Source: Mycobacteriales bacterium
Lineage (GTDB): Bacteria; Actinomycetota; Actinomycetes; JAFAQI01
Length of the DNA stretch: 64,000 nucleotides
Reading direction: 5' to 3'
NCBI GenBank assembly: GCA_035550055.1
Contig: DASZRO010000018.1
Span: 94,743 to 158,742, forward strand
Shown: positions 46,608-50,462 of the stretch, one piece after another
How the letters are laid out: each line of letters begins with the position of its first letter
Numbering within the stretch: the stretch's first letter is position 1
The notes under the pieces: model-generated
Databases searched by the model: none
The model's input: the letters and a program-made list of their open reading frames with translations, nothing else
Told to the model about the DNA's origin: nothing
Translations under genes and position numbers: made by a program

Positions 46608-47879
46608 TCACGGGTAGAGACCGCGGATCTGATGCGCCTCCGCCACCCGCCCGACGGCGATGATCTGCGCCGCGATCCGCTTGGACACCCCCCGTTCGCG
46701 CGCCACGGCGGCGACGTCGGCGTACGAGCGCTCCATGATCGCCTTCATCCGGTTGACCACCTCTTGCTCGGACCACCAGTACACCTGGATGTCCTGCACC
46801 CACTCGAAGTAGGACACCGCCACCCCGCCCGAGTTGGCCAGGATGTCGGGTACGACGACGGTGCCCTTGCTCTCGAGCACCGCGTCCGCGTCGGGCGTGG
46901 TCGGGCCGTTGGCGCCCTCGACCACGAACCGCGCCTTGATCGCGTCGGCGTTGCCGTTGTGGATCACGCCTTCGAGCGCTGCCGGCACGAGTACGTCGAC
47001 GTCGAGGGTCAGCAGGTCCTCGTTGGTGATCGAGTCCGTGCCCGGATAGCCCGCGACCGTGGCCAGCCCGCCGCGGACGTCGCGGAGCATCGCGGCGGGA
47101 TCGAGTCCGGCCGCGTTGTAGGCACCGCCCCCCACATCGGAGACCGCGACCACCTTGCAGCCGGCTTCCTGAAGGAACTGTGCGGCCAGCCCCCCGACCT
47201 TGCCGAAGCCCTGCACCGCGACGGTCGCGCCGACCGGGTCGACGCCCGCCTCGCGCAGCGCTGCGAAGACCGCGATCTGCACCCCACGGCTGGTCGCACC
47301 GCCGCGGCCTTCGGACCCGCCGACGCTGAGCGGCTTGCCGGTGACCACCCCAGGGGTGGTGTAGCCCTTCTGCACCGAGAAGGTGTCCATGAACCACGCC
47401 ATGGTCTGCTCGTCGGTGCCGACGTCAGGCGCCGGGATGTCCTTTTCCGGACCGACGATCGGGAACAGCTCGCTGGCGTAACGCCGCGTCACCCGTTCCA
47501 GCTCGTAGTGGCTGTAACGGCGCGGGTCGATCGTGACGCCGCCCTTGGCGCCGCCGTACGGGATGCCGATCAACGCGCACTTCCAGGTCATCCACATCGC
47601 GAGGGCGCGCACCTCGTCGATGTCGGTGGACGGGTGATAGCGGATCCCGCCCTTGGCCGGGCCCCGCGCGTCGTTGTGCTGGACGCGATAGCCGCGCAGT
47701 ACCTCTACGTTGCCGTCGTCTCGGCGCAGCGGAATGGCCACCGTCAGCTCACGCCGAGGCGTCGCGAGCGTCCGGTACATCCCGTCGTCGAGCCCGAGGT
47801 GCTTGACCGCCTCCGCGAGCTGCAGCTGCGCCGACTGCCACGCCGACTGCCGGACCGGTTGGGACGTCTGATCGGCCAC
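46608..47879 (-). CDS. gdh: NAD(P)-specific glutamate dehydrogenase (Glu/Leu/Phe/Val dehydrogenase family)
   Basis: KGGIRYHP, GGAKGGV and the GxGxxG NAD domain. GTG start. Confidence 0.88.
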   Translation of the reverse strand: MADQTSQPVRQSAWQSAQLQLAEAVKHLGLDDGMYRTLATPRRELTVAIPLRRDDGNVEVLRGYRVQHNDARGPAKGGIRYHPSTDIDEVRALAMWMTWKCALIGIPYGGAKGGVTIDPRRYSHYELERVTRRYASELFPIVGPEKDIPAPDVGTDEQTMAWFMDTFSVQKGYTTPGVVTGKPLSVGGSEGRGGATSRGVQIAVFAALREAGVDPVGATVAVQGFGKVGGLAAQFLQEAGCKVVAVSDVGGGAYNAAGLDPAAMLRDVRGGLATVAGYPGTDSITNEDLLTLDVDVLVPAALEGVIHNGNADAIKARFVVEGANGPTTPDADAVLESKGTVVVPDILANSGGVAVSYFEWVQDIQVYWWSEQEVVNRMKAIMERSYADVAAVARERGVSKRIAAQIIAVGRVAEAHQIRGLYP

Positions 47880-47909
47880 GGGCTCATCCTGCCACCGACG
47901 ACAGCACCG

Positions 47910-47982
47910 AGCCCCGTGTCCGGATTGAACGGACGACCGCTCGCTTACAAGGCGAGTGCTCTACCACTGAGCTAACGGGGCA
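47910..47982 (-). tRNA. tRNA-Thr (anticodon UGU)
   Basis: Cloverleaf read on the minus strand: GCCCCGT-TA-GCTC-AGTGGT-AGAGC-A-CTCGC-CTTGTAA-GCGAG-CGGTC-GTCCG-TTCAATC-CGGAC-ACGGGGC-T. No encoded CCA. Confidence 0.85.
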
Positions 47983-47995
47983 AGCGCCCCAAGGT

Positions 47996-48162
47996 TAGGG
48001 AATCACTGATCCATGCATGTCCTGCTGCGCGTCGCCCGGATCGACGGCTGGACCGCGTTGTCGTCGTCGGCGGTAGCGCTGCTACCGCGCTCCTCCTCCG
48101 CCTTGCCAGCCGCCGCCCGGATCGCCGCTCGCGACGGACGGCATTAATCAGTGATTCCCTAG
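47996..48162. repeat. 167 bp segment bounded by 16 bp inverted repeats TTAGGGAATCACTGAT / ATCAGTGATTCCCTAG, containing a 44-codon ORF
   Basis: Inverted repeats read directly (15/16 match). The ORF ATG (about 48014) through TAA (about 48147) fits exactly between them. Lower GC than the surroundings. Confidence 0.7.
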
Positions 48163-48209
48163 AGCGCGGCGGCTGCCAACCGAATCGGCGCTTCGAGAGT
48201 CTTCTGTGC

Positions 48210-49799
48210 ATGCCGGGGGTGCCGCTGACTCGTCGGCGGGCGCTCGGCCTGCTGGCGGGGACGGGAGCGGCGGGCGTCCTCGCCGCGTGCAGTGGCGGCT
48301 CCGGCCGGCCGGTGGCGCCGAGCGGTACGCGGGCCCCGACACCGACGCCCAAGCCGCCGAGCGCCCCCGCCACCGCAGCCGCCACCGACTGGCGGGCGCT
48401 GCGACAGGCCATGACCGGTGAGCTGCGACGGCGTGGTGAGGCGGGGTACGAGGAGGCTTCCCTGCTCTTCGACCCCCGCTTCGACCACGTCCGCCCGGCG
48501 GCCGTCGCGACGGTCGCGACCGAGAGCGACGTCGCGGCATGCGTCGCGTTCGCGCACCGGTTCGGTCTGCCGCTGTCGATCAGGTCCGGCGGCCACTCCT
48601 ACATCGGTGCCTCCACCGGACCCGGGCTGGTGATCGACCTGCGTGGGCTGCACGACATCGACGTCGGCGACGGCACCGCGACGATCGGCGCCGGCGCGGC
48701 GCTGGTCGACGTGTACGCCGGCCTCGCTGCGCAGGGTGTCGCGATCCCTGCGGGGTCCTGCCCGTCCGTCGGGTTGTCCGGGCTGGCACTCGGCGGCGGG
48801 GTCGGAGTCGTCACCCGCAAGTACGGCCTGACCTGTGACCGGATCGCCGCCGCCCGGGTAATCACCGCCGACAGCACGGCGCAGACCGTCGACGCCGACC
48901 ACGACGGCGAGCTCTTCTGGGCACTGCGCGGCGGCGGTGGCAGCTTCGGCGTGGTGACCTCGCTGACCGTGCAGACCCATCCGACCGAAGCGCTCTCGCA
49001 CGCCTTCCTGGTCTGGCCGTGGTCGGCGGCCGCCGACGTGGTGAGCGCCTGGCAGGCGTTCGCCGTCGCGGCGCCCCGCGAGCTGTGGTCGGCCTGCCAC
49101 GTCCTCGCGCCCGACACCAAGTCGGCCGGCCCGAACGTGTCGGTCGTCGCGGTCCACGTCGGTCCGAGCAGCGCCCTGTCGGGCCACCTCGACAGCTTGC
49201 TTGCCGCGGTGCCGCTCGCGCCGACGACCCGCTCGATCACCGACGACGACTACGAGTCGACGATGCTGCTCGAAGCGGGGTGCGCCGACCTCACGCTCGC
49301 GCAATGCCACGTCGGCGCCGAGACGCCGGGCGGCACGCTGCCGCGCGCGGCGTTCCTCGGCGCCTCGGACTACTTCCACGACCCGATCCCCGCGGCAGGC
49401 ATCGCGGCGATGGTGCAAGCCGTCGAACGCCGCGCGGCCGATCCACTCCTCGGCAACGGCGGCGTGTCGCTCGACGCGCTCGGCGGCGCGGTCGACGACC
49501 TCGCCCCCGACGCCACGGCGTACGTCCATCGGGGTGCGCTGTTCAACGCGCAGTACACGGCGGGATGGCGCGGCGGCGGCGATGCAGCGCTGGCCCGCAA
49601 CCGGTCGTCGCTGGCCGCGATTCATGCGACGCTGCGGCCCTACGGCACCGGCCAGGCGTACCAGAACTACGCGGACGCGACGCTGGTCGACCCGCAGCGG
49701 GCGTACTACGGCGCGAACCTGCCGCGGCTGGTCGAAGTCAAACGGAGCTACGACCGGCGCAACGTCTTCGACCAACCTCAGGGCATCAAGCCCCGGTGA
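48210..49799 (+). CDS. Tat-secreted lipoprotein, FAD-linked oxidoreductase of the BBE/VAO family
   Basis: Twin-arginine signal TRRRALGLLAGTGAAGVLAAC. FAD_binding_4 with the covalent-His motif RSGGHSY, and a BBE-like C-terminus. Confidence 0.85.
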   Translation: MPGVPLTRRRALGLLAGTGAAGVLAACSGGSGRPVAPSGTRAPTPTPKPPSAPATAAATDWRALRQAMTGELRRRGEAGYEEASLLFDPRFDHVRPAAVATVATESDVAACVAFAHRFGLPLSIRSGGHSYIGASTGPGLVIDLRGLHDIDVGDGTATIGAGAALVDVYAGLAAQGVAIPAGSCPSVGLSGLALGGGVGVVTRKYGLTCDRIAAARVITADSTAQTVDADHDGELFWALRGGGGSFGVVTSLTVQTHPTEALSHAFLVWPWSAAADVVSAWQAFAVAAPRELWSACHVLAPDTKSAGPNVSVVAVHVGPSSALSGHLDSLLAAVPLAPTTRSITDDDYESTMLLEAGCADLTLAQCHVGAETPGGTLPRAAFLGASDYFHDPIPAAGIAAMVQAVERRAADPLLGNGGVSLDALGGAVDDLAPDATAYVHRGALFNAQYTAGWRGGGDAALARNRSSLAAIHATLRPYGTGQAYQNYADATLVDPQRAYYGANLPRLVEVKRSYDRRNVFDQPQGIKPR

Positions 49800-50462
49800 T
49801 CACGACGCGTCAGCGATCTCCCGCGCCCGCAGGTGACCGTCGAGCTTGCGCTTGATCCGCTGCAGCGCGTTGTCGATCGACTTCACGTGCCGGTCGAGCA
49901 CCGCCGCGATCTCGTGGTAGCTCTTGCCGTCGATGTAGAGCCGCAGCACCTCGGCTTCGAGGTCGGACAGCGCCGCGTCGAAGTGGGCCTGCAGCGCCCG
50001 GATCCGCTCGGCGGAGATCACCAGGTCGGCTGGGTCGCAGACCGCGGTCATCGGGAGTACGTCGGCGAGCGTGCGGTCCCCGTCCTCGTCAGCGACGACC
50101 GGGCGGGAGAACGAGACGTAGTTGTTCAGCGGTCCGTGCTTCTGGCGGGTCGCGGTCTTGATCGCGGTGATGATCTGGCGGGTCACGCAGAGCTCGGCGA
50201 AGGCGCGAAAGCTCGACGTGAGCTCCGGGTTGAAGTCGCGGATCGCCTTGTAGAGGCCGATCATGCCCTCCTGGACGATGTCCTCGTGGTCGGCCCCGAC
50301 CAGGAAGTAGGAGCGTGCCTTCGACCGGGCGAAGCCGCGGTACTTGGTGAGCAGGTCGCTGAGTGCGTAGTCGTCGCCCGCCCGGGCGGCGGCGACGAGC
50401 GCGTCGTCGTCGTCCTCACGGCGTGCCACGGGCGCAACCGGGTGCACCCTCGCTGAACGCAT
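49800..50462 (-). CDS. RNA polymerase sigma factor, Bacillus SigH (Spo0H)-like sigma-70 family
   Basis: Regions 2-4 (KARSYFLVGADHEDIVQEGMIGLYKAIRDF, FAELCVTRQIITAIKTATRQKH, RHVKSIDNALQRIKRKL) are almost identical to B. subtilis SigH. Confidence 0.8.
   Translation of the reverse strand: MRSARVHPVAPVARREDDDDALVAAARAGDDYALSDLLTKYRGFARSKARSYFLVGADHEDIVQEGMIGLYKAIRDFNPELTSSFRAFAELCVTRQIITAIKTATRQKHGPLNNYVSFSRPVVADEDGDRTLADVLPMTAVCDPADLVISAERIRALQAHFDAALSDLEAEVLRLYIDGKSYHEIAAVLDRHVKSIDNALQRIKRKLDGHLRAREIADAS

Follow-up and report, generated by a model that had tools for sequence, protein, structure and literature searches.

Insertion sequences (ISs) of the IS5 group, among them IS5 of Escherichia coli and the ISBmu23-like elements of Burkholderia and Ralstonia, are units of ~1.2 kb that carry a gene for a transposase of ~320 amino acids, and IS5 is reported to duplicate its target, 5'-YTAR-3' (PMC5009759). 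Shorter bacterial repeats, such as Correia/NEMIS of Neisseria, RUP of pneumococcus and ERIC of enterobacteria, measure 100–200 bp, have terminal inverted repeats and a terminal TA, and occur as many dispersed intergenic copies with long stem-loop potential, with chance or fused open reading frames (ORFs), and in long as well as internally deleted forms (PMC2229807). Here we report on a stretch of 64,000 nucleotides from a Mycobacteriales bacterium (the 64-kb window), and in it on a 160-bp segment that lies between a tRNA-Thr(UGU) gene and a divergent oxidoreductase gene of the FAD_binding_4/BBE type (the BBE gene). Judged from its sequence, this segment is very probably a non-autonomous miniature inverted-repeat transposable element (MITE) with terminal inverted repeats of the IS5 group (IS5 family). 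An earlier note on this DNA had named a miniature inverted-repeat element next to a tRNA among several possible identities, and this is the one that is borne out: the segment belongs to a repeat family with dispersed copies, is flanked by target tetranucleotides, is missing from an empty site at an orthologous locus, and has full-length relatives that tie its ends to IS5-family transposases.

The likeness to the IS5-group ISs lies in the ends and the flanks. The ends of the window element, of the type GGAATCACTGATCAATG or GGAATCACTGAT(C/T)(C/A)ATG, agree with the ISBmu23-like end GGAAACGCTGATCAATG at 15 of 17 positions, and YTAR flanks and insertion in non-coding DNA are found in both. The window element differs in being 160 bp long without a transposase, as against ~1.2 kb with a gene for ~320 amino acids, and in having no alignable sequence beyond the first ~20 nt; moreover, the hosts here are high-GC Actinomycetota, and the cognate IS was not found in the loci that were fetched. 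All of the features listed above for Correia/NEMIS, RUP and ERIC are shared by the window element. However, RUP is linked to IS630-Spn1, whereas the ends here are of the IS5 group, and, unlike in those systems, there is no sign here of RNase III processing, of IHF sites or of promoter activity. The PIF/Harbinger transposases of eukaryotes are related to IS5. The Tourist MITEs associated with them are likewise short derivatives bounded by terminal inverted repeats, moved in trans by IS5-like DDE transposases, with a TA-centred target and often a position near genes; they differ from the window element in being eukaryotic, in duplicating 3 bp (TAA/TTA), and in their unrelated sequences.

The window element is framed by a perfect inverted repeat that encloses ~160 bp, 13 nt upstream of the tRNA gene. 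A repeat search places the left 15-mer, TAGGGAATCACTGAT, at 47996–48010 on the plus strand, where its first three bases form part of the target tetranucleotide, and the right one at 48147–48161 on the minus strand. The earlier note had described repeats of 16 bp. These are real (chance expectation 0.02; two matches arose in 0 of 100 shuffles), but the arm TTAGGGAATCACTGAT at 47995–48010 and its reverse complement at 48147–48162 are complementary at 15 of 16 positions, with the mismatch at the outermost base, and the coordinates first given were off by one base. Each arm contains a small palindrome, ATCAnTGAT, and no third copy of the 16-bp arm was found in the window with up to three mismatches allowed. 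Between the target tetranucleotides lies the MITE body of 160 bp, 47999–48158, which runs from GGAATCACTGAT to ATCAGTGATTCC and is supported by near-identical copies in other flanks, by Nocardioides copies of the same length and by the fold; it has no transposase coding, and its sole ORF has 44 codons. The description of the segment as lower in GC did not hold: the interior (48011–48146) has 72.1% GC compared with 70.5% for the window, and the arms alone are AT-rich (37.5% GC).

A search for the repeat beyond the window, as the earlier note had proposed, covered a single genome for each species, took the 20-nt end TAGGGAATCACTGATNNATG as its query, and returned 14 loci. In the Mycobacteriales metagenome-assembled genome (MAG) SMAG_U5970, the whole unit stands in two different flanks (L015, 7124–7289, and L017, 7–172) with 97.6–98.2% identity, and a further copy, L006, truncated where its contig stops, has 99% identity, giving at least three near-identical copies in that genome. 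Because SMAG_U5970 may be of the same species as the source of the window, the ~98% identity of these copies is not taken as a sign of horizontal transfer. The MAG SMAG_U6086 holds at least three short forms of 60–66 bp, two of which (L012 and L016) are clean internal deletions; the short forms keep ~25–30 nt of each end and lack ~105 nt of the interior. Nocardioides sp. GXZ039 carries three copies of 167 bp together with one 65-bp deletion form, and its copies align over their full length with the window copy, with an interior identity of 60–61% relative to 50.8 ± 2.6% for shuffled interiors. In MAGs of Synergistaceae, Clostridia and Coriobacteriales, the same ends are found on short elements with unrelated interiors.

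These copies speak against the proposal that the segment serves the BBE gene as a leader-peptide or operator module, given that the whole unit recurs at unrelated loci. Within the source organism, a short-read assembly (GCA_964558155.1, 100% identical to the window over 9 kb) has two contigs that end inside the element and overlap by exactly 141 nt, 48025–48165 (L001, 1–141, and L003, 1–141). Such breaks indicate a repeat or a polymorphic site, which argues for more than one copy in the source genome, although the 64-kb window holds only one. A Logan contig (L002) likewise begins at window position 48125, and the SMAG_U5970 contig L006 begins inside another copy.

Some further observations concern the wider set of elements with these ends. 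MITEs with IS5-type ends of this sort cluster at 157–168 bp in hosts whose GC content varies widely (L014, 4269–4435; L080, 11522–11689 and 13847–14010; L045, 131–287; L004, 3311–3477; window, 47996–48161), and deletion forms of 60–66 bp accompany the long forms in at least three genomes. On MAG contigs of Clostridia and Synergistaceae, three or four such MITEs lie within a few kb (L014, 612–4435; L007, 1046–2882; L009, 949–4517), which suggests very high copy numbers there; in the Clostridia locus L009, there are two ends and no transposase. The exact 20-mer had no match in viral contigs, and in metagenome contigs it matched three single ends, apparently chance matches or solo ends. Plasmids searched with the whole element yielded nothing but GC-rich noise, plasmid searches with two synthetic end-pairs gave no element, and a literature search for the repeat sequence gave unrelated matches only, with no description of the sequence.

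The flanks of these elements identify the target. The window element is bordered on the left by TTAG (47995–47998), where the homology between tRNA loci ends and where the orthologous locus L128 has a single TTAG, and on the right by CTAG (48159–48162), recognised by comparison with other copies. Both are YTAR sites, and they match at three of four bases, with the TA identical. All of the 16 short and eight full-length elements examined are flanked by TA within YTAR, mostly CTAG. The TA is duplicated in 16 of 16 elements and the full tetranucleotide in 10 of 16; because CTAG is palindromic, 2-bp and 4-bp duplications are indistinguishable where it is the target. Perfect non-palindromic 4-bp duplications are seen in L091 (CTAA/CTAA) and in two L014 elements (TTAG/TTAG), in agreement with the reported duplication of 5'-YTAR-3' by IS5 (PMC5009759). 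As a separate observation, the flanking YTAR copies differ at one base in six elements (window, 47995–47998 and 48159–48162; L026, 7089–8308; L013; L007; L014; L076), and in these six the element-adjoining base always keeps a G...C or A...T symmetry, as if one flanking donor base travels along.

An empty site is found at an orthologous locus. There (L128/L129), the BBE and tRNA-Thr genes diverge across 60 nt, with one TTAG where the window holds the element, while in the window the spacer between the tRNA-Thr and BBE genes is 228 nt and holds the element. Read on the tRNA strand, L128 is GGTTGGCAGC-GCGCGACGAT-TTAG-CCTGGGTCGCGCTT-tRNA, in which GCGCGACGAT is a spacer of 10 nt (N10), and the window is GGTTGGCAGC-CGCCGCGCT-CTAG-[160 bp]-CTAA-CCTTGGGGCGCTT-tRNA, in which the spacer CGCCGCGCT is one of 9 nt (N9). 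An element-free form of the window locus in the same species would read GGTTGGCAGC-N9-CTAA-CCTTGGGG. BLAST homology of two other orthologous loci, L019 and L020, to the window stops at 47998–47999, and both are without the element upstream of the tRNA. The comparison with tRNA-Thr loci lacking the segment, which had been suggested as a check, is provided by L128/L129, L019 and L020.

The ends also connect the window element to autonomous transposons. A scan of viral and prophage contigs with the degenerate end TARGGAANCNCTGATYNAT returned 101 loci, of which ~17 have two inverted ends at a distance of 1185–1269 bp. These IS5-family elements of ~1.2 kb carry the same end, reading TAGGGAAACGCTGAT. 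In one of them (L026, 7091–8306), the one long ORF matches NCBIfam NF033581 (transpos_IS5_4, IS5 family transposase) with an E value of 1e-107 and 360 bits relative to a cutoff of 140; it is 100% identical to a Burkholderia plasmid gene that bears the annotation 'IS5-like element ISBmu23 family transposase', and 52.8% identical to InsH of E. coli IS5. All of the bounded elements that were tested encode IS5-type transposases, 43–86% identical to that of L026 and 43–100% identical among one another. Since such diverse transposases stand behind these ends, the ends are common to the IS5 group rather than the property of one IS.

The TA flanks in CTAG had first suggested a MITE of the IS630/Tc1-mariner type, similar to Stowaway, which would insert at TA, preferably in CTAG, and duplicate the TA only. 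Indeed, only the TA agrees between the two flanks of every copy, and the six elements with tetranucleotides differing by one base, in which the element-adjoining base is complementary (G...C or A...T), would fit such a mechanism. IS630 elements are reported to duplicate TA, and IS630 to prefer TA within CTAG (PMC2170065). However, every full-length element that was found with these ends encodes a transposase of the IS5 family and not of the IS630 family, and the non-palindromic 4-bp duplications in L091 and in two L014 elements would not arise if TA alone were duplicated. With the full-length elements being IS5-family, this origin was dropped, and we regard it as improbable.

Several points weigh against the assignment as an IS5-group MITE. 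Copies could be counted in only 64 kb of the source genome. Neither the window nor the fetched actinobacterial loci yielded an IS5 homologue, and hence no IS5-group transposase bounded by precisely the window ends; the full-length elements all come from the viral and prophage contig collection, and their ends differ from the window end at 2 of 17 positions. In the window itself, TTAG against CTAG is an imperfect 4-bp duplication in which only the TA is strictly duplicated. The empty-site comparison is between species and draws on another lineage, in which the glutamate dehydrogenase (GDH) of L128/L129 is only 83% identical to that of the window, with no sister strain.

For an IS5-group MITE, the history of the locus is probably as follows. 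An IS5-group DDE transposase encoded elsewhere would recognise the ~16–20-bp ends and move the 160-bp unit, so that mobilisation would be in trans in this host. The unit would insert into 5'-YTAR-3', and this site would then stand on both sides of the element. The target here was the sole YTAR in the ~60-bp divergent promoter region of the BBE and tRNA-Thr(UGU) genes, in which the TA opens a hexamer similar to a –10 element, and the two identical ends of the element have replaced the former upstream sequence of each gene.

The hexamer in question, TAACCT, lies at 47992–47997 on the minus strand, 10 nt upstream of the mature 5' end of the tRNA, and its first two bases are the target TA. It is conserved 10–11 nt upstream of the tRNA in the orthologous loci, as TAACCT in the window, TAGCCT in L019 and L128, and TAATCT in L020 (TANNCT). 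The consensus for actinobacterial –10 elements is TANNNT, and by its fit to this consensus the hexamer is a putative –10 element of the tRNA gene. Since the target was duplicated, a complete TAACCT survives beside the tRNA. With the hexamer retained, and with everything upstream of it being the MITE end, mirrored on the BBE side, the locus comes to resemble a symmetrical 'paired operator'.

The position beside a tRNA gene can be considered against the supply of targets. YTAR is depleted about tenfold in the window (34 observed and 349 expected from base composition), and CTAG accounts for half of the sites. Between 46000 and 50500, there are four: one in the tRNA gene, one in the element, and the two flanking copies. 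The site beside the tRNA is best explained by target availability, with YTAR scarce overall and available in an AT-richer promoter, and not by tRNA targeting. None of the actinobacterial copies elsewhere adjoins a tRNA-Thr gene, one locus has a tRNA-Ser ~3.7 kb away, and in 10 actinobacterial loci the element occurs away from tRNA genes. Apart from adjoining a tRNA gene, the element has little to recommend it as what remains of an integrative element that targets tRNA genes, or as the attachment site of one, a reading we consider hardly credible: it stands on the 5' (promoter) side of the tRNA and not at the 3' end, the tRNA sequence is not repeated, the genes called over ~4.5 kb to each side include no integrase, and the unit is found away from tRNA genes in those 10 loci. 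The judgement of the earlier note that this is not a classical tRNA-integrated island was sound: the element is 5' of the tRNA, there is no integrase nearby, and there is no tRNA-derived repeat.

The interval between the repeats had also drawn attention for its ORF. A 44-codon ORF exists there, at 48013–48147 on the plus strand and with the translation that the earlier note gave, but its TAA, rather than lying cleanly inside the right repeat, overlaps the 16-bp right arm by one base and stands in the imperfect inner extension of that arm. The ATG falls within the inner portion of the left end, which is conserved (...GATCCATG), and the TAA within that motif's complement at the right end (CATTAATC...). 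In general, the repeat holds ...GATNNATG, and its complement at the opposite end, CATNNATC, gives TAA or TGA. Both the ATG and the TAA thus come from terminal repeat sequence, so that start and stop are two views of one repeat. The frame in between stays open in 60% of shuffles of the 43 internal codons, and ATG-initiated ORFs of at least 44 amino acids occur at 3.8 per kb in the window. Chance ORFs are common in bacterial MITEs (PMC2229807).

These properties bear on the proposal that the ORF is a small-protein or leader-peptide gene for 44 amino acids between a pair of operators to which some regulator of the BBE gene would bind. In its favour, the ORF fills the interval between the arms, its GC content at the third codon position (0.84) exceeds that at the second (0.64), and each arm has the small palindrome. 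Over all three codon positions, the values are 0.69/0.64/0.84, compared with ~0.71/0.43–0.58/0.88–0.93 in real genes here. Beyond the frequency of such ORFs and their openness in shuffles, the proposal is opposed by the copies, which do not preserve the ORF: L015 has AGG in place of the ATG start, L012, L016 and L013, being short forms, lack the interior, and the Nocardioides copies have not maintained the frame. The arms and the interior recur together at loci without the BBE gene. No homologue of the product was found among 5.8 billion protein clusters, in which no protein has even three 5-mers in common with it, and the nearest purine-rich stretch, AGGGA, 12 nt 5' of the ATG, is too far away for a ribosome-binding site. 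We consider a gene with a paired operator very improbable; with start and stop drawn from the terminal repeat, the 44-codon ORF is instead an incidental by-product of that repeat, and we do not regard it as a gene. The ORF was also considered as a fusion of the N- and C-terminal parts left by an internally deleted transposase gene. This was rejected, as there is no similarity to transposases (blastp against the IS5 transposase gave no match at E ≤ 100) and the gene of the full-length IS neither starts nor stops in the repeats.

Turning to the structure of the element, either strand can fold into one long imperfect hairpin, with –84.6 and –99.4 kcal/mol and z scores of –5.1 and –7.4, and the Nocardioides version folds alike (–92.6 kcal/mol, z –7.5). 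When six copies are folded to a consensus, 47 pairs remain, and 5 of these are changed on both sides; only two lineages contribute to it, so that the evidence from covariation is weak. No Rfam match was found inside the element in a scan of 47500–48600 at E ≤ 10, the tRNA being the only convincing match. Long stem-loops are general among bacterial MITEs (PMC2229807). The interior also has a conserved box at 48099–48108, which reads CGCCTTGCCA on the plus strand and TGGCAAGGCG on the minus strand and lies ~54 nt inward of the right end. The Nocardioides MITEs share it at an equal distance, and so does L045, an unrelated MITE whose ends are the same. Across three MITE lineages with interiors that align poorly or not at all, the box lies 51–63 nt from one end (nt 54–63 in L004, L008 and L011; 10579–10588 in L045), and a looser version, GGCCAAGGGCG, occupies nt 45–55 of the right end of the ISBmu23-like IS.

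A further alternative is that the host exploits the MITE, with its ends supplying promoter or operator sequence to both divergent genes, or with a transcribed hairpin RNA affecting the tRNA precursor or the BBE mRNA. The insertion falls within a 60-bp divergent promoter region and has regenerated a –10-like hexamer; the tRNA-Thr(UGU), with no other tRNA found in the window, is presumably needed, so that transcription must work with an element end upstream. The two diverged subfamilies each form the hairpin, in which both partners have changed in 5 pairs, and some bacterial MITEs have putative promoters or stem-loops that affect mRNA (PMC2229807). Set against this, a consensus scan of 47850–48300 found no sigma-70-type promoter and no intrinsic terminator in or around the element, no Rfam family was matched, the covariation comes from two lineages only, and a hairpin is typical of MITEs whether exploited or not. 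We consider exploitation by the host unlikely. A related proposal is that the insertion was not neutral: it would have split the 60-bp divergent promoter at a shared –10 TA, the same IS5-type end would now drive or co-regulate both the tRNA-Thr(UGU) gene and the gene for a secreted flavoprotein, and the MITE family would perhaps be constrained beyond transposition, by a host-factor site or a structured transcript. A constraint of this sort is hinted at by the ~160-nt hairpin and the box TGGCAAGGCG, which are kept across subfamilies with interiors that are ~60% identical, but the proposal as a whole is doubtful.

The surrounding genes are otherwise as follows. The tRNA-Thr(UGU) gene (DNA anticodon TGT) that the earlier note had placed beside the segment is called by ARAGORN and by Rfam (tRNA, 67.9 bits) at 47909–47981 on the minus strand, outside the element; it is the sole tRNA found in the window, and the orthologous loci L019, L020 and L128 keep it. 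Downstream of it lies the GDH gene (46608–47879, minus strand). On the other side of the element, the BBE gene occupies 48210–49799 on the plus strand, with a twin-arginine motif, TRRRAL, so that the region is divergent, as had been described. The stop codon of the BBE gene ends at 49799, and a convergent ORF for a sigma-70-family factor (49800–50462, minus strand) ends at 49800, leaving a spacer of zero. Among relatives, the stretch from BBE to GDH is a variable cassette (L019, 653–2500; L020, 1–532; L128, 86–2500; L021 and L025, upstream of GDH): it contains an aquaporin gene (MIP), tRNA-Thr and VapBC in L019, aquaporin and tRNA-Thr genes in L020, and tRNA-Thr with three peptidase-like genes in L128, and in some relatives it is without any tRNA gene. 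Because the aquaporin gene lies between the BBE and tRNA-Thr genes in L019 and L020, its loss through recombination between two MITEs was considered for the window; this is not needed, since in L128/L129 the BBE gene adjoins tRNA-Thr without an element.

In annotation, the element is best masked as repeat sequence, its 44-codon ORF should not be called a gene, and its arms should not be taken for an operator pair. In this organism, the element explains the breaks of short-read assemblies at the locus. More widely, a family of MITEs with IS5-group ends is documented in high-GC Actinomycetota (Mycobacteriales MAGs and Nocardioides), in which long and internally deleted forms coexist. The locus offers a clear example of how the scarcity of YTAR in a genome of 70% GC steers such elements into the –10 regions of promoters. 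If the insertion does alter expression of the tRNA-Thr or BBE gene, a MITE would here have rewired a promoter in nature, on a small scale.

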